Of a stretch of DNA of 64,000 nucleotides, positions 10,872-55,044 are shown in pieces. Location: the NCBI GenBank assembly GCA_963703345.1, contig OY969814.1, positions 1,600,001 through 1,664,000 on the forward strand, in the 5' to 3' direction. The DNA comes from an uncultured Chloroflexia bacterium. Lineage in GTDB: Bacteria > Chloroflexota > Dehalococcoidia > DSTF01 > JALHUB01. The notes below the pieces were generated by a model. It saw only the letters and a program-made list of their open reading frames with translations, was not told the origin of the DNA and did not search any database. The position numbers were made by a program, and so were the translations under genes. Within the stretch, counting starts at the first letter, position 1; the number at the start of each line of letters is the position of its first letter.

Positions 10872-11537
10872 CTACCTCTTGCGCCGGACGGTCCGCCTGA
10901 CAGTGGGCGGGACGACAGGTTGCGTCGCTGGCTGCGGCGACGAGACAAGGGCGGAGACGAGGGCGCTCAACACCTGCGACGACTCCGTCTGACCCGGCAC
11001 GACATTGGAACGAAGCGCCAGGCCGTCGTGAGCGGCTAGCACGAGACTCGCCGCGACGGCCGGTCGCGCCGCCAGCATGACGAGTCCCTCGCGTTCCATT
11101 CTTTCGAAAGCCTTCTCCAGTAGCCGGGTCCAGCTCACGTAGGCGTCCTGCAGCGAATTCCGCACCTTCTCGTTTCGATGCGACTGCGCCCAGATCTCCG
11201 GCAGAAGCAGCCGCCATTGGGCGTCGGTATCGTCACGATACACCAGCGACTCCACGGCCTTCACCAGAGACAGCGCTGTGTCGTCGCCGAGGTCCTCGAA
11301 CTGGCGTAGCCGGCGCGTATGCTCCTCTATCCAGAGAGACAGGAGCTCCAGGAGCACCTCTTCTTTAGAGTCGAAGTGGAAGTAGTACGCCCCCTTCGAG
11401 TAGCCAGCGGCAAGGGAGATCTCTTCGACCGTCGCGTGGTCGTAGCCTTGCTCAGCAAAGACGCGAAGCGCCGCCTCGACGAGTTTTGTCCTCGTCTGTT
11501 GGCGTTGCTGCTGTCTGGCGGCTCTCGCTTCGTTCAA
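10872..11537 (-). CDS. TetR/AcrR family transcriptional regulator
   Basis: HTH ATVEEISLAAGYSKGAYYFHFDSKEE. Confidence 0.9.
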   Translation of the reverse strand: MNEARAARQQQRQQTRTKLVEAALRVFAEQGYDHATVEEISLAAGYSKGAYYFHFDSKEEVLLELLSLWIEEHTRRLRQFEDLGDDTALSLVKAVESLVYRDDTDAQWRLLLPEIWAQSHRNEKVRNSLQDAYVSWTRLLEKAFERMEREGLVMLAARPAVAASLVLAAHDGLALRSNVVPGQTESSQVLSALVSALVSSPQPATQPVVPPTVRRTVRRKR

Positions 11538-11970: not shown

Positions 11971-12069
11971 GGCACCGACAAAGGCAAACTCCTCGAAAGA
12001 GGGGGACGCAAAGCCGCAGACCTAAAGCTTGCTGTCGCAGAAGCTATGGCCGCTGGGCTTCCGAAAGCC
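11971..12069 (+). promoter_or_regulatory. c-di-GMP-I (GEMM) riboswitch aptamer
   Basis: GGCAAA-CTCCTC-GAAA-GAGGGG-GACGCAAAGCC...CCTAA...TATGG...GGGCTTCCGAA: GNRA tetraloop, its receptor and the conserved junctions. Confidence 0.92.
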
Positions 12070-12207: not shown

Positions 12208-12933
12208 ATGAGAGAAGACCGGAATCAGATGATCGTCAACCACCTGCCCTTGGTGGCTTTCGTGGTGAACCGCATGCCCAGCGAGGGTACGGGCGCTGTC
12301 GGCATCGACCGCGAAGACGCCATGAGCTACGGCGTCGAGGGGCTCATCCACGCCGTCGACGCCTATGACCCCGAGCGCGGGACCACCTTCGCCAGCTTTG
12401 CCATCCAGCGGATCCGCGGCTCGGTGCTGGACGCTGTTCGCAAGCAGGATCCGCTGCCGCGCTCACTGCGCAGGAACGCCAAGGAGATCGAGCATGCGTC
12501 GCAGGAGTTGGCGGTACAGTTGGGCCGCTGGCCGACCCGGAAGGAGATCGCATTCAAGCTGGGAATCCCCCTATCGCGGCTCCAGTACCTTCTCAGCCGA
12601 GCAAGCTCGCGGCTTGTCTCTCTCGAGTACTCGCTGGAAGACCGTCCGAACTACGGTGCCGGCCATGCGCTGGACCCGGTGGATGAGGACATCCTATCCG
12701 ACCCGGCGCGCGCGGCTGAGCAAAAAGCGGCGCTCTCGCAGCTTTCGCAGGCCGTGAACTCTCTTTGTCGAAGGGACAGGGACATCCTTCGCCTGCGTTA
12801 CGAGGAGTGCCGGCCATTCCACGAGATCGGCGAGATGCTGGAGCTGTCGGAATCGAGGGTCTGTCAGCTTCACAAGCGGATCATCACCCTTCTGCGTCGG
12901 GAGATGCGTCCCCAACTGGAAGAGGCGGCTTGA
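12208..12933 (+). CDS. FliA/WhiG (sigma-28) family RNA polymerase sigma factor
   Basis: GLIHAVDAYDPERGTTFASFAIQRIRGSVLDAVRKQDPLPRS; region 4 EIGEMLELSESRVCQLH. Confidence 0.9.
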   Translation: MREDRNQMIVNHLPLVAFVVNRMPSEGTGAVGIDREDAMSYGVEGLIHAVDAYDPERGTTFASFAIQRIRGSVLDAVRKQDPLPRSLRRNAKEIEHASQELAVQLGRWPTRKEIAFKLGIPLSRLQYLLSRASSRLVSLEYSLEDRPNYGAGHALDPVDEDILSDPARAAEQKAALSQLSQAVNSLCRRDRDILRLRYEECRPFHEIGEMLELSESRVCQLHKRIITLLRREMRPQLEEAA

Positions 12934-12983: not shown

Positions 12984-13011
12984 TCATCACTGCGGTCTAA
13001 ACTGCCGATAA
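12984..13011 (+). promoter_or_regulatory. putative sigma-28 promoter for the HD-GYP gene
   Basis: Perfect -10 GCCGATAA at 13004-13011; weak -35 (TCAT, 16 nt upstream). Confidence 0.55.
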
Positions 13012-13174: not shown

Positions 13175-14659
13175 ATGCAGAATGGTGTAGAGCCAGAAGA
13201 CGAATCGAACGGCAGCAAGACGGAACGCCCGCCGCTAGTGTTGGTCCATTCCACGGCCGGTCCCGCCGCGCATGCTGACGCTGATCGCCCCCATGTTCCG
13301 GCGCCCACTTCCCTGCCGGTACAGGCGCGCATCTTCTCAATCGTCGTCTTCCTCTCGGGCCTGGCGCTCATAGGCTACTACGCGCCGCAAGTGTCTCATT
13401 CCGGCCTCGTAGGGCTCATCCTACTGGGGCTTATGGCCGCCGCTTCGGAACGGTTGAGCATCATCGTTTACGGCGAGAGCTGGGTCTCAATAAGCTTCGT
13501 CTGTCTCTTCGCCATTGCAGCACTTTACGGCCCCCCAGGCATCGTCGTGGCGACACCCCTCGCGATTCTGAGCCTGCACTTTCCGCGGCGGATGCTTCCA
13601 GATCGGCTGATGTTCAACTCGGGCAACTCGCTCCTCGCCGATGTTGCATCAGCACTGATCCTCACGTCTTTCCTGGCGGGCGGCTCGCAAATCACGCTGT
13701 CCGCAAGAGTGTTTGGCGTTGCCGTAGCTGCCGCGGCCGCGAACTATGGCGTGAGGTCTGTCCTGATATCGACTGTGGGCGGCTTGGCGTCGGGTCAACG
13801 CCCGTGGACGTTCTGGCGGCAGAACTTCCAGTGGCTGCTCCCCCACTACATCCTCTTCGGTTTCCTTGGTTTGGCGCTGGCGGTAGCTTATCAGCAGATC
13901 GGCGTCACCGGCCTGCTCGCCTTTGCCGCTCCGCCGCTGATGATGCGTCTTGCCATGAAGCAATACGTCGACAAGACTACTCGCAGCGTCGCGATGCTGA
14001 GGCGCAAGAACGACCAGCTCTTGAAGGCAAATCGCGAAATCCTGGCGATGAGCGCGCGCCTCAAAGAGACATATGACGCCACCCTGGAGGCGCTAGCGGC
14101 GGCGCTGGACGCCAGGGACAGCGAGACCGGCGGGCACTCCAGCCGCGTCACGGTCTACACAATGGATATGGCGCGGGAACTGGGAATAGAAGAACGGAGC
14201 GACGTGTGGCTGGATATCGAGCGCGCCTCGCTGCTTCACGACGTAGGCAAGATCGGCGTTTCCGACGCTATCCTGAACAAGCCTGGCCCGTTGACCTCTG
14301 AGGAGTGGCAACAGATGAGAAAGCATCCGGCCATAGGCTACGATATGCTGAAGGACGTAAAGTTCCTTTCAACTGCGGCGGAGATCGTCTACGCGCACCA
14401 CGAAAGATTCGACGGCAAAGGCTATCCGGTCGGCCTCCAGGGCGAAGACGTACCCCTAGGCGCGCGCATATTCGCCGTCGCTGACGCTTTCGACGCGATG
14501 ACCTCGAACAGGCCCTATCGCCGCGCCCTTTCGGTGGACAAGGCGCGGGAGGAGATCCTGGGCAATTCGGGCAGTCAGTTTGATCCCAGAGTGGTTCAGG
14601 CTTTCCTGCAGTGCCTTCAGGGCTGGGCGGATGACTTGAGGGAAAGGCAGGCCGCCTAG
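13175..14659 (+). CDS. membrane-anchored HD-GYP c-di-GMP phosphodiesterase
   Basis: Multi-TM N-terminus; GHSSRV, LLHDVGK, HHERFDGKGYP, DAMTSNRPYR all intact; start codon uncertain. Confidence 0.9.
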   Translation: MQNGVEPEDESNGSKTERPPLVLVHSTAGPAAHADADRPHVPAPTSLPVQARIFSIVVFLSGLALIGYYAPQVSHSGLVGLILLGLMAAASERLSIIVYGESWVSISFVCLFAIAALYGPPGIVVATPLAILSLHFPRRMLPDRLMFNSGNSLLADVASALILTSFLAGGSQITLSARVFGVAVAAAAANYGVRSVLISTVGGLASGQRPWTFWRQNFQWLLPHYILFGFLGLALAVAYQQIGVTGLLAFAAPPLMMRLAMKQYVDKTTRSVAMLRRKNDQLLKANREILAMSARLKETYDATLEALAAALDARDSETGGHSSRVTVYTMDMARELGIEERSDVWLDIERASLLHDVGKIGVSDAILNKPGPLTSEEWQQMRKHPAIGYDMLKDVKFLSTAAEIVYAHHERFDGKGYPVGLQGEDVPLGARIFAVADAFDAMTSNRPYRRALSVDKAREEILGNSGSQFDPRVVQAFLQCLQGWADDLRERQAA

Positions 14660-14886
14660 CAGGCAACGAATTGCCTGCGCTCCGATGCGATGACCGTTGA
14701 GGCGAGGAAGAGAGGAGTGTCGTAGGCCCCTGGACGATGACGAGTCTGGCTGGACCTATGCGAATCGTCCGAAGGCCAAGACGGTCGGTGCTATCGAGTC
14801 AATGCCCTGGGTTTGTTGAGCCGGCCCGCTTTTCAGGAGGGCGCGGGCGCCATCTGTAGCTCAAAGAGTCTTCTGAGGCGTCCCTC

Positions 14887-14910
14887 CTAGAACCAGTGCA
14901 TCTTCTTCAT
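14887..14910 (-). CDS. 7-aa micro-ORF MKKMHWF
   Basis: CCAGGAGG-ccacc-ATG AAG AAG ATG CAC TGG TTC TAG, downstream of a strong promoter. Confidence 0.45.
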   Translation of the reverse strand: MKKMHWF

Positions 14911-14985
14911 GGTGGCCTCCTGGCAGTGCGCGGCACACGTGGGTGCCGTCCGGATGTGGTTCCTTCCTCTCCACTCGCCTCAACA

Positions 14986-15007
14986 ACATACCGACCCGTC
15001 GGTATGT
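14986..15007. promoter_or_regulatory. perfect 22-bp operator-like palindrome ACATACCGAC-CC-GTCGGTATGT
   Basis: 10-bp arms directly abutting the -10 box of the minus-strand promoter. Confidence 0.75.
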
Positions 15008-15035
15008 ATTATGACACCCGCTTGTAACTTGTCAA
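15008..15035 (-). promoter_or_regulatory. sigma70 promoter
   Basis: TTGACA-16-CATAAT with extended -10 TG. Confidence 0.75.
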
Positions 15036-15208
15036 GGTTCAAATAGGGCCAACCTGAAGCTCAAAGGGAAACGCAGACCCCAGGATACCCGCGAGGAACC
15101 CGACGGTGCAGGAGACACGCCCTAGTCTAAGGGCACAAGGGCTGGCAGGATCAGCGTTCTTGAGCGACTGGTGGGGGGCGAGTTGCTGTCAGGGATGCGA
15201 GGGAAAGC

Positions 15209-16093
15209 TTATCCAGAGGCGCTCGTCCAGCGTTCGCGGCGGCGGTCTCGGTCTTGCTTCGCGGTCTCCAGATTGTGACGCGCTTGCACGAGCAGGTCGA
15301 GAGGGTTGTTGTCGGCGTCTTGAGCTGAGGCGATTCCGGAGCAGACGCCCACCCATAGCGTTATCGTCTGGCCTTCCACGTTCACGGCAACCGGCTTTCG
15401 CGTCACATAACGCTCCAGGCGGCGCAGGAACTTCGAGGCGTCCTCCTGGCTGCATTCGAGCAGGATCAGAGCGAACTCGTCGTCGCCGAGGCGGGCAGCG
15501 ATGTCGGATGACCGCTTTGTTAGCTCCAGCAGGTCCGCTATGTGTTTGAGTACGGCATCTCCCGCCGCCTCGCCATACGCCTCGTTGACCGAAGACAGGT
15601 TGTTCACGTCGAAAACGGCGAGAGAGAGCGTGGAGGCAGTGCGCTGCATGCGCTTGAACTCGTCGCGAAGGCGCAGCCGGAAGTACTCCTCGCCCGGCAG
15701 ACCGGTCACGTCGTCGCGCATCGACGGCGAGAGCGTCCTTTCCAAGCCTTCCGCCGTCTTCTTCGCCCGGTAGATGGCGAAGAGACTGGTGATTACGACC
15801 GCAACCATCAGAAGCTCGACGGCCGCTGCCAAATGCGGAGCCTGCCTTCTCTCATCGAGGAACGAAAGCGAGGCGCCGGCGAGCACAGATATGAGCGCAG
15901 CGATGAGATATCGCCGCAGATCCTGCCATACCTGCGCCCTGCCCGCCGGTGGGCCTTTGGAAGAGAGCTTCTGCAACGTGAGCGCGCGCGTATCGCGCCA
16001 GTCTTCGCTGGCGTCAGCGCGAAGCTCATCTTGAAGCGGCCTCGGCAGGGAATGAGTATCCTCTGGTTCGGAGATGTGTCTGTCTTCGAGCAA
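15209..16093 (-). CDS. 2-TM protein with degenerate GGDEF domain (GDDEF) and intact RxxD I-site
   Basis: DDVTGLP, DVNNLSSVNEAYG, KRSSDIAARLGDDEF; TTG start with GGAGG. Confidence 0.85.
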   Translation of the reverse strand: MLEDRHISEPEDTHSLPRPLQDELRADASEDWRDTRALTLQKLSSKGPPAGRAQVWQDLRRYLIAALISVLAGASLSFLDERRQAPHLAAAVELLMVAVVITSLFAIYRAKKTAEGLERTLSPSMRDDVTGLPGEEYFRLRLRDEFKRMQRTASTLSLAVFDVNNLSSVNEAYGEAAGDAVLKHIADLLELTKRSSDIAARLGDDEFALILLECSQEDASKFLRRLERYVTRKPVAVNVEGQTITLWVGVCSGIASAQDADNNPLDLLVQARHNLETAKQDRDRRRERWTSASG

Positions 16094-16249: not shown

Positions 16250-16795
16250 ATGCAAATCGACTGGAGCAAGACGATAGACGATATCCTGTCGCACAAGATA
16301 TCGTGCCTTCGCTGCGGCCGCTTGGAGACGTCCGTTTGTGTTGGCTATTCGCGATCGCCGGCGGTGTCTGACTACGCGCCGCGCTGCCTCGATTGCAGTC
16401 GACGAGAAGGATGCGACGCGCGGAAGCTAGTCGTTCTCTGCCAATCCTGCGCGGAGGAGTTGCATGTCCGGGCGAAGCAGGCGGACGAAGAAGCCATGAT
16501 GGCCCTGCTTATCGACGACTGCCGCAAGGACCTCGAGGACTGCCTCGACTACCTCACCGACTACTGGCAAGAAGAGCTGAACGTCGACCCGGACGATGAG
16601 GAGCACCGGCTGGAAGGGGTTGCGCCAGACGTGTTTGCCGAGGAGAGCGCCTGGCGGGCCCGCCTTGAAGAAGAGTACTTGTCGTATCACCGCTGGTTCC
16701 GGGAGCGCGGCCTTCGCCTGCCTGAGCCGGGTTGGCGCTCCGACTACGTCGAAGAGATCGTCGATCTCGGTTACACCACGCTACTGGGAGACTAA
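16250..16795 (+). CDS. hypothetical protein with Cys-rich (Zn-binding) N-terminus and acidic helical C-terminus
   Basis: CLRC, CLDC, CQSC; GAGG RBS and its own promoter. Confidence 0.7.
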   Translation: MQIDWSKTIDDILSHKISCLRCGRLETSVCVGYSRSPAVSDYAPRCLDCSRREGCDARKLVVLCQSCAEELHVRAKQADEEAMMALLIDDCRKDLEDCLDYLTDYWQEELNVDPDDEEHRLEGVAPDVFAEESAWRARLEEEYLSYHRWFRERGLRLPEPGWRSDYVEEIVDLGYTTLLGD

Positions 16796-19328: not shown

Positions 19329-20411
19329 CTACTGAATCGCGTGTAAACGCTTGCCGTTGGGTTGGTAGACTCTGTACAGGTCTGCCTTGTTGAGGGCCAA
19401 TAGACGGCAAAGATCATCGTGAGAATAGCCCAAGCTGTCACAATGATATGCGACTATATCACGCAATAACTCGGGCGGCTCTGAGGGCGGATCAAGTTCT
19501 TCTGGTTCTCGCAAGCGATAACCTGCTTTGCTCAGTTGCATCATCATACGCTGCTTCTCATACGCTGAGATTGCGCCCGCGGTAGAAGCCCGCATTATTA
19601 GCGCTTGCATCGACATCTTCCAGTATTCCTTGAGTGGCGCGAGCCTTTTGAGGCTGAGGTTGAAAAACTGAGGCCTGATCTCATGCTTTGGTGCTAAAAA
19701 CTCGCCAGCGAATAGATGGGCGTCCGGTTCCATCTGTGGATACGAGCCAGAGGTAGAGTGCATGACTATATGCCCTAACTCGTGGGCGAGTGCAAAACGC
19801 CAGCGATCAGGGGGAATCTTGGAACTCATATAGAAGATCGGAGGCGTATTCGACCCCCATCGGCTGAAACCATCAACATCAGGTGTACTGAAATCGCAAC
19901 TAAGAACTATTCCGCCAGCAGATTCGATGACCTTAGTCATGCTGAAAATTGGCCCTGGCGGAATTCGCAACGTTGCTCTCACAGTGCGCGCTATCTTCTC
20001 CGGATTTCCCTCGAATTCGTTTATGTCCAGCACAGGAAATGGCTCTTGGGGCATCTTATCCCACGAGCGTAAGAGAGCCGCTATTTCGAAACGTCGGATT
20101 TCGGCTTCGGCGTGAATCCTATGAAGGGCCATAGCACTCGCCCTTGCCTTCTTCCGGTGATATATCTCGGTAATCCCAGGTCCACCAACCTCCTCTCGCC
20201 GCAAAAAGAAACCGGCTGGATAGTCGAGGGCTTCAGCCAGCGCGCTCAATCTGTCGCCCGATAAAGGCTCAAGGCCGGTCTCTACTTTTGAGACCGTTCC
20301 CTGAACCCATCTGAGTTTGACGGCAAGTGCGGCTTGTGAGATTCCTCTAGACTGGCGCGCCAGCGTGATCATTTCGGGATTGGCCCGTTCGGGCGTAGGT
20401 TCTGCTGGCAA
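19329..20411 (-). CDS. XRE HTH fused to ImmA/IrrE metallopeptidase
   Basis: RQSRGISQAALA...VSKVETG; RFALAHELGH; low GC. Confidence 0.9.
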   Translation of the reverse strand: MPAEPTPERANPEMITLARQSRGISQAALAVKLRWVQGTVSKVETGLEPLSGDRLSALAEALDYPAGFFLRREEVGGPGITEIYHRKKARASAMALHRIHAEAEIRRFEIAALLRSWDKMPQEPFPVLDINEFEGNPEKIARTVRATLRIPPGPIFSMTKVIESAGGIVLSCDFSTPDVDGFSRWGSNTPPIFYMSSKIPPDRWRFALAHELGHIVMHSTSGSYPQMEPDAHLFAGEFLAPKHEIRPQFFNLSLKRLAPLKEYWKMSMQALIMRASTAGAISAYEKQRMMMQLSKAGYRLREPEELDPPSEPPELLRDIVAYHCDSLGYSHDDLCRLLALNKADLYRVYQPNGKRLHAIQ

Positions 20412-20414
20412 ACT

Positions 20415-21029
20415 CTAGATTGCCTTTCCCATGTACTCCGAGTAGTCATCGTAAGCATAAACGTCGGTCTGTTGTCCCAACTGCGCGGGAAACCGACGTT
20501 GGATGCCGAAGGTCTTTAGATCGAGCGGAGAACCAAGAACCTGCCATATCCAGTCGTTGACGGCGGTTACCACGCCATTGGGAAGCGTGACGAAGGCGCC
20601 AGTGACCACGGCACCAGTGACATCCAGTGTATAGCCAAATTCGAGGCGTCCAATCTTAGGCAGGGTTGCAAGCGCAGCCTGCTGTACCCAGCGACGCGCC
20701 CTTCGAGTCGGGTAGTTATGCGATTCCAAGCCCGCGCCCAACCGTTTGAAACGGAGAATCACAGTCTCGTCGAAAACCATGTATCTTTGCAGACTATCCA
20801 CAAGGAAAGCCACCCCCGGATCATCACTGAGGAGCTGCTGCGCGTGGGAATAGAAGCTCTGATTCACGATAATGGCACGAGCGGACTCGTCTAGGATGAG
20901 GTGTAGATGTTTGCAGTCTTCGCGCCAAGTTTGCCAGGCCTTGCCGAATGCAGTTACCAACTGGGGCATCCGTGGCCTAAGGACATCCTGCGATTCTGGA
21001 AGGGAGATGATCGAGGCGAACGTAGTCAT
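20415..21029 (-). CDS. hypothetical protein, putative toxin/effector partner of the XRE-peptidase
   Basis: AAGGAG RBS, 3-nt gap to the XRE gene, low GC. Confidence 0.7.
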   Translation of the reverse strand: MTTFASIISLPESQDVLRPRMPQLVTAFGKAWQTWREDCKHLHLILDESARAIIVNQSFYSHAQQLLSDDPGVAFLVDSLQRYMVFDETVILRFKRLGAGLESHNYPTRRARRWVQQAALATLPKIGRLEFGYTLDVTGAVVTGAFVTLPNGVVTAVNDWIWQVLGSPLDLKTFGIQRRFPAQLGQQTDVYAYDDYSEYMGKAI

Positions 21030-54540: not shown

Positions 54541-54637
54541 ATCACCTCGCGAGTCGATTTCCGTCATTATAGCGCCGGAGCCGAGCGTCGGCGAGAAAAG
54601 GGAGGCCCGTCCGCCTGAGGCGGACGGGCCACGCAAG

Positions 54638-55044
54638 CGCCAGCGGACCTGTAAGCCGAGTTCTGTCTTTCCGCCCAAGGCGGACAGGCCGCCTTCGACG
54701 AAACGGTGACCATCTATCTGGGATGACGGTTGCCCGCCACCTCTAGCGACCAACCCGAGGACGGGCCGGGCGAGCCCATAGTCCTCCTATTCGGTCTTGC
54801 TCCGGGTGGGGCTTGCCCGGCCAGCCGGTCGCCCGACTGCCGGTGAGCTCTTACCTCGCCATTTCACCCTTATCCACCTGAGGCAGACAGGCCGCCTGCG
54901 GCGGACGGTATGTTTCTGTGGCGCTTTCCGTAGGGTCGCCCCTCCTGGGTGTTACCCAGCACCCTCGCCCGGTGGAGCTCGGACTTTCCTCCCTCATGCG
55001 TCTGCATCGCAGACGCGCGAGAGCGGTCACCCGGTCTGCTGGCG
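54638..55044 (-). ncRNA. rnpB: RNase P RNA (type A)
   Basis: GAGGAAAGTCCG near the 5' end, ACAGAACTCGGCTTACAGG at the 3' end, complementary P1 termini, TATACT -10 upstream. Confidence 0.95.

Follow-up and report, generated by a model that had tools for sequence, protein, structure and literature searches.

A seven-codon open reading frame (ORF) from an uncultured Chloroflexia bacterium probably encodes a leaderless, tryptophan-ended peptide ligand for the MASE9-type phosphodiesterase encoded beside it, within a circuit of TetR, sigma-28 and c-di-GMP control; we put the probability of this reading a little above one half (about 0.55). The ORF lies in a window of 64,000 nucleotides (contig OY969814.1, positions 1,600,001 to 1,664,000), the whole stretch of DNA that was analysed, to which coordinates refer unless another sequence is named. 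In the proposed mechanism, the regulator TetR-1 would sit on an operator over the transcription start (+1) and repress the promoter, and on derepression a stable, closed-end mRNA would be translated. The peptide occurs in relatives in forms of 30-34 or 6-8 residues; the former would be exported precursors and the latter, including that of the window, their leaderless equivalents. The Trp-bearing C-terminus would enter a pocket of the MASE9 domain resembling that of ECF-transporter S-components and switch the phosphodiesterase activity, for which activation is our guess. The altered c-di-GMP level would then feed back through a riboswitch and a sigma-28-type factor onto the cyclase and phosphodiesterase genes. 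We found no description of a peptide partner of MASE9, or of this cassette, in the mostly open-access literature that our search reached.

The gap between the HD-GYP gene and the GGDEF gene spans 14660-15208. An earlier note on this DNA had proposed a near-consensus minus-strand promoter there, and the site is indeed present: a sigma-70-type promoter with an extended -10 (15008-15035, minus strand; -35 at 15035-15030, 16-nt spacer, -10 at 15013-15008) that agrees with the consensus at 11 of 12 positions. It is the sole such site in 14000-15600, where shuffles gave 0.3 expected by chance, and no plus-strand promoter of the sigma-70 type was found in that interval. Both hexamers are still recognisable in relatives. 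Over the predicted +1 lies a palindrome (14986-15007), which the note had described as perfect over 22 bp; the palindrome stands, but it is made of two 10-bp arms around a 2-nt non-palindromic centre (20 of 22 positions). The motif has a single occurrence in the genome at up to one mismatch, and palindromes of similar size are common there. The combination of a -10 box and this operator was found once each in 22 of 93 genomes of the order, against 0 for a reversed-pattern control; this tally and some others of the order, including the OppA genome counts below, take in one unpublished genome, G045, on which no claim depends by itself. In GTDB, 44 loci carried the operator pattern. Sixteen of them are this cassette, while among the other 28 a TetR match started 56-74 nt downstream in 14 and a divergent TetR was present in two, and the same motif stands directly before tetR genes in other phyla. 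As read from sequence, the palindrome is a predicted TetR-type operator site. When a profile of the TetRs encoded behind the same operator was run against the window genome, tetR-1 (10872-11537, minus strand) ranked first (E 3.6e-24; next paralogue 3e-21), which makes its product the best candidate for the operator binder, by a small margin.

A second, degenerate copy of the operator, one base shorter in the window (14780-14792, minus strand), is clear in the relatives with long peptides: at 38 of 63 loci (p ≤ 0.05), each with a long form, most of the operator recurs in reverse complement some 90-100 nt past the peptide stop. This inner copy could be an auxiliary operator, or a partner that pairs with the 5' end of the RNA. 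On the other side of the promoter, at 15040-15208, most relatives have a divergent second tetR gene (tetR-A), sometimes followed by oppA-B-C, which has been lost here. Searching the gap with tetR-A proteins (tblastn) revealed no tetR remnant, and a blastn search of the genome with the gap gave no further copy, so the element is single-copy. A terminator-like hairpin is located at 15093-15072. Elsewhere in the genome, related REP-like palindromes of 24-28 bp are scattered (for example at C1:33642, 481186, 875656, 1202015 and 2161903), and a perfect 36-bp palindrome lies at C1:586834-586869.

The Shine-Dalgarno (SD) site, the 5-nt spacing and the ATG opening seven codons were found as the earlier note had reported them, with the SD at 14921-14916, the ATG at 14910 and the stop ending at 14887 (ORF 14887-14910, minus strand). 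The GGAGG core of the SD is invariant in all 14 aligned relatives. The window peptide has seven residues, three of them basic, with a basic N-terminus, an aromatic C-terminus and a single Trp codon. DNA of the element was matched in 17 of 61 genomes searched, including 15 of the 17 other members of the family. Of 85 loci that carry the operator (21 in genomes and 64 in metagenomes, partly redundant), 81 have an ORF 71-110 nt downstream of it that follows an SD site and includes Trp in its final five residues; the four loci without such an ORF are contig ends. Two size classes were apparent. The short forms (6-8 residues; 28 loci) comprise 17 distinct peptides sharing one pattern, and the long forms (30-34 residues; 53 loci) comprise 43 distinct peptides that begin with basic residues, continue with a hydrophobic core (some 15-20 residues) and a small-residue stretch with frequent Gln, and finish in a Trp-rich tail. 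By their sequence layout, the long forms look like a signal peptide followed by a C-terminal passenger. For 13 long peptides no Pfam or NCBIfam match above cut-off was obtained. Genes as small as the one in the window escape annotation.

Across 14 short-form transcripts the start, the stop and the SD core are kept, and the length of the ORF varies by whole codons only. When 40 further loci of the order were chosen by their HD-GYP gene, 32 had a Trp-ended peptide, always converging on that gene, while such an ORF was found by chance behind 11 of 400 random long ORFs. As for the other eight, one ends at the stop, three are long homologues without Trp (all in family f5), one is a short ORF without Trp (f2), one, also from f2, is truncated by a premature stop codon, and in the remaining two no peptide was seen; the cassette peptides lacking Trp or truncated are those of loci L183, L194, L196, L208 and L210, the last being the early stop. 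Both forms occur in f1, long forms in f3 and f5, short forms in f2, and short forms together with one 23-residue case in f4, so that, judged by family label, peptide length has changed more than once. The order-wide start, stop, SD and C-terminal Trp, the frame-keeping insertions and the TetR-type operator all support the regulated micropeptide, one of the options that the earlier note had left side by side. Another of them, the remnant of a deleted full-length gene or a pseudogene, we regard as hardly credible. The seven-residue form does look like a long form minus its hydrophobic middle, in frame, but no ORF in the relatives exceeds 34 residues, their 30-34-residue versions end at the conserved stop, the SD is conserved as well, and 17 distinct short peptides follow one pattern. 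The gene lost in the window is the divergent tetR upstream of the promoter.

The transcript itself is structured. The pairing that had been noticed after the stop codon (14888-14882 with 14841-14835; helix 14835-14888, minus strand) is part of the consensus structure of 14 relatives, with seven pairs, 92.8% of cells paired and one pair with a two-sided change. A longer helix joins the ends of the transcript, its 5' arm at about 14987-14963 pairing with a 3' arm at 14717-14693 (both minus strand) that likely lies near the transcript 3' end; over 14 sequences its 19 pairs are formed in 98.9% of cells. In f1 the transcript comprises this closing helix and three further helices, with 95.7% of cells paired (slid controls, 51-61%) and 11 pairs with two-sided changes, a number reached in 0 of 500 shuffles. 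Since the structure was drawn from the same alignment and from related sequences, these pair statistics are inflated and are supportive rather than proof. The folding energy of the whole transcript is unremarkable (z -1.86).

These helices bear on whether the RNA itself is functional, either as a small RNA titrating CsrA or as an antisense to the 3' end of the HD-GYP mRNA, which we consider improbable. CsrB, RsmY and RsmZ carry several GGA motifs in hairpin loops, and the element likewise has several, with csrA present in the window genome (C1:189312-189467), a transcript convergent with the HD-GYP gene and RNA contigs, described below, that cover it. The seven GGA motifs in about 100 nt counted in the earlier note are there (14990-14880, 111 nt), but the excess is weak, as 4% of 2000 dinucleotide shuffles reach seven (p about 0.04). 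Moreover, unlike in those small RNAs, most of the motifs are base-paired, which makes a CsrA sponge unlikely: three are buried in the 5' arm of the closing helix (14963-14987; unpaired probability ≤ 0.14), one is the SD site and one overlaps the stop, and the element, unlike them, contains a conserved ORF. Rfam returned only chance matches for the element at its gathering and E-value thresholds; a 6S RNA model had no match in the genome. The comparison of peptide and RNA structure across relatives, which the note had proposed, came out for the peptide. The peptide is kept at 81 of 85 loci, whereas the f4 transcript consists of a leader, the peptide and then directly a terminator-like hairpin, and the f4 loci tested gave no sign of pairing between the 5' and 3' ends, indicating that the long RNA is dispensable and the peptide is not. 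As a separate observation, C1:1153996-1154214 contains two CsrA-like matches in one 117-codon frame, possibly a tandem double-CsrA protein.

The closing helix and the Trp codons also bring to mind a type I toxin mRNA, in which pairing of the 5' and 3' ends is typical, or a tryptophan-sensing leader peptide (attenuator), since many relatives have runs of Trp codons. We hold either to be very improbable. Pairing of the ends is shared with toxin mRNAs, but seven residues are too few for a membrane-spanning toxin, and no sigma-70-type promoter, as an antisense antitoxin RNA might use, was found on the plus strand of 14000-15600. An attenuator would be expected to have tandem Trp codons and a regulated gene downstream; there is just one Trp codon in the ORF of the window and in every f4 form, and no same-strand gene follows. 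As to expression, three RNA contigs from close relatives in one soil metatranscriptome cover 14743-14977, one with three differences in 199 letters and one with a 3-base insertion within the ORF. The remaining 27 of 30 bins, including the promoter and both flanking genes, were empty. The three contigs, from one study and silent as to strand, start and translation, are a weak hint at an abundant transcript.

The earlier note had called the transcript an orphan, a description that no longer fits, for the peptide gene and the HD-GYP gene are parts of one conserved cassette. Its order is GGDEF gene, opp genes where present, divergent tetR-A, operator and promoter, peptide, converging HD-GYP gene (13175-14659, plus strand), riboswitch and sigma-28-type factor, and divergent tetR-1. 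The diguanylate cyclase (GGDEF) gene (15209-16093, minus strand) is preceded by a sigma-28-like promoter (about 16147-16121, minus strand; both boxes, 15-nt spacer), and a sigma-28-like -10 box alone stands before the HD-GYP gene (13004-13011, plus strand). The sigma factor (12208-12933, plus strand) is of the FliA/WhiG family and syntenic, scoring 185.5 bits with TIGR02479, below the cut-off of 189.6, and a c-di-GMP-I riboswitch precedes its gene (11973-12065, plus strand; 77.9 bits). In f2, the Trp peptide is retained next to the HD-GYP and sigma genes at 10 of 12 loci with no tetR match in the fetched stretch, so that these two genes are the most stable partners of the peptide. The linkage nevertheless does not name the receptor, because TetR, sigma factor and cyclase share the cassette.

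In the main rival reading, the peptide would be a pheromone that leaves the cell, returns through Opp and binds TetR-A or TetR-1, relieving repression of its own promoter. In Rgg/SHP and ComR/ComS systems, a hydrophobic precursor with a basic N-terminus is encoded divergently from its regulator and imported by Opp, and ComS has a double-Trp tail; the precursor layout of the long forms, the divergent regulator, the Opp genes and the Trp tail are all shared here. The regulator here, however, is a TetR rather than an Rgg, the output is c-di-GMP, and no model of Pfam or NCBIfam matched any of the 13 long peptides above cut-off. The divergent tetR-A is present at 15 of 21 genome loci (not detected in five, one locus being too short), and in several long-peptide loci oppA-B-C lies directly behind it, which points to import and a cytoplasmic target. 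Opp genes (Pfam SBP_bac_5, OppC_N) were found in the fetched flank of 17 of the 53 loci with a long form and none of the 28 with a short form, counts that are limited by many contigs too short to show Opp and by related, non-independent genomes. Similarly, an OppA at E < 1e-140 was present in eight of nine long-form genomes (one being the query's own) against none of 13 short-form genomes of f1, f3 and f4. TetR-1 has its best NCBIfam match, below cut-off, in the ScbR autoregulator-binding family (88 versus 150 bits). Against this stand the loss of tetR-A from the window genome and four close relatives with operator and peptide intact, the f2 cassettes with a peptide and no tetR match in the fetched stretch, and the f2 genomes, most of which combine that OppA class with short peptides, so that the link between Opp and long forms is not general. 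On balance we think a TetR receptor unlikely, and prefer the phosphodiesterase as the target.

Several other features were recorded around the cassette. The oppA of genome G017 is split in two frames (L096:5642-7310) by a frameshift or a sequencing error. At 16250-16795 (plus strand) lies a gene for a 181-residue Cys-rich protein without a Pfam match; most relatives keep it next to the GGDEF gene, with identities of 62-93%. An HTH plus Peptidase_M78 (IrrE/ImmA-like) gene is found at 19329-21029 (minus strand) with an upstream gene for a 204-residue partner in which no family was recognised, a layout known from mobile-element regulators or toxin-antitoxin pairs. The window also holds the RNase P RNA (54636-55042, minus strand), with tmRNA just outside it (C1:1593159-1593511) and a tRNA-Sec elsewhere in the genome.

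The proposed receptor is a membrane protein of 494 residues with a C-terminal HD-GYP domain whose HD and GYP motifs are intact (HD_5, E 1e-37), and is predicted from sequence to be a c-di-GMP phosphodiesterase. Its N-terminal domain falls below the cut-off of the Pfam MASE9 model (PF20972); profiles built from Pfam-MASE9 hits matched it at E 6e-32 and 2e-21, hhalign gave 99.96%, and the atlas gave 0.90 for the membrane domain, with the MASE9 family on 35% of cluster members. No other gene of the window genome has a MASE9-like domain. A structural model of a relative's domain (pLDDT 91.5) was used in a structure search, in which the top 15 rows were 14 ECF-transporter chains and BtuM. The best ECF S-component match had Z 14.2, rmsd 3.5 and 192 aligned residues, and the first row after the top 15 stood at 7.6. 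In Foldseek ECF S-components also came first, with no E below 0.001. The model thus predicts that the MASE9-like domain folds like ECF S-components such as RibU, FolT, BioY, ThiT, PanT and CbiM, from which it differs by its fusion to a phosphodiesterase as a sensor and by an identity of only 8-17%. S-components bind their ligands in the membrane, though those known to be bound are small molecules rather than peptides, and similarity of fold does not establish function. A complex prediction for a relative's MASE9 domain plus linker (120 rows) with that relative's 32-residue peptide (48 rows) scored 0.02 (mark, 0.32), and the controls were unfolded; it counts neither for nor against binding.

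Another kind of direct partnership deserves weighing. With MgrB and PhoQ as the model, the long forms might be single-pass membrane regulators of the HD-GYP protein, and the seven-residue form a reduced, cytoplasmic-side version, or one kept mainly as translation that protects the mRNA. Their hydrophobic core of about 15-20 residues fits this, as do the data linking the peptide to the HD-GYP gene and its MASE9 domain. The short forms, however, are not long enough to cross a membrane; even so, three families have them, with the C-terminal Trp retained despite change at the amino-acid level, which leaves a membrane regulator rather improbable beside a ligand.

The present cassette can be set against known MASE9 and peptide systems. 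In the parts of the paper that were accessible, Galperin and Chou (10.1101/2021.11.05.467447) give no ligand for MASE9 and suggest binding within the membrane, and the word 'peptide' does not occur in the main text of the preprint. MASE9-HD-GYP proteins described there and in PMC6205966 include TM1467 of T. maritima and HdgA of S. venezuelae; the Streptomyces hdgA mutant had no phenotype, for which its authors suspected missing activating signals (PMC6205966). The window protein shares with them a homologous membrane domain and an HD-GYP domain with intact motifs, and differs, by what these accounts contain, in having a convergent peptide gene with its own promoter. DUF5317, whose gene follows MASE9 genes elsewhere, was found in one of five genomes searched, and in neither the window genome nor three other genomes of the family. 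Leaderless communication peptides, according to PMC10518010, are mostly of 8-10 residues, highly hydrophobic and received by a cytoplasmic TPR transcription factor of the RopB clan, and longer precursor forms are suspected for them too. The short forms resemble them as ultrasmall, SD-led leaderless ORFs with aromatic residues next to a proposed receptor gene; by that description they differ in their 6-8 residues and basic N-terminus, three of seven residues being basic in the window. No RRNPP or RopB/Rgg TPR gene was found among the 12 neighbours scanned. Because such a receptor is missing from this neighbourhood, we do not file the window ORF as a leaderless communication peptide, although by analogy it is predicted to act alike.

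We also looked for peptide ORFs beside MASE9 genes in other bacteria, using for Chloroflexota the best 30 MASE9 loci out of 36 of 301 genomes and for a Bacillota sample the best 30 out of 72 of 201 genomes; four Chloroflexota loci and one Bacillota locus were dropped (main ORF not found or upstream DNA too short). An SD-led, Trp-ended ORF of 5-50 codons lay upstream of the MASE9 gene at 18 of the 26 loci from Chloroflexota and 16 of the 29 from Bacillota, compared with 0 on the opposite strand and 2.3 and 3.6, respectively, in shuffles. These counts are filter hits, of which at least one (L231) looks spurious, while several misses show candidates under looser rules. Tentatively, and at somewhat less than even odds, we suggest that MASE9 domains, with their S-component fold, are the receptors of Trp-ended peptides made on the ribosome, and that the two form a class of peptide quorum sensing with a direct effect on c-di-GMP turnover in several phyla. 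Within this order two kinds of signal would have replaced each other more than once: a precursor of 30-34 residues that is exported, often with an Opp importer dedicated to it, and a leaderless peptide of 6-8 residues controlled by TetR. Most c-di-GMP enzymes still lack an assigned input, and MASE9 counts among the orphan sensors; a natural ligand of 6-8 residues is cheap to synthesise, so the ligand question is directly testable. If true, this would extend peptide signalling to Chloroflexota and couple it to the turnover of a second messenger with neither kinase nor RRNPP regulator in between.

A plasmid search (tblastn) returned mostly unrelated HD-GYP matches. At the two MASE9-like plasmid loci examined, one ORF of 31 residues has Trp five residues from its end and one hydrophobic ORF of 25 residues lacks Trp. 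Several Chloroflexota MASE9 loci have a short and a long peptide in tandem. Ahead of the MASE9 gene at L213, L217, L218, L224, L227, L228 and L241, the tandem pair is a leaderless short ORF and a hydrophobic long one with identical last three residues. At L220 and L239 the upstream ORF ends in several tandem copies of a five-residue unit containing Trp, an array by which a larger protein could yield MASE9 ligands.
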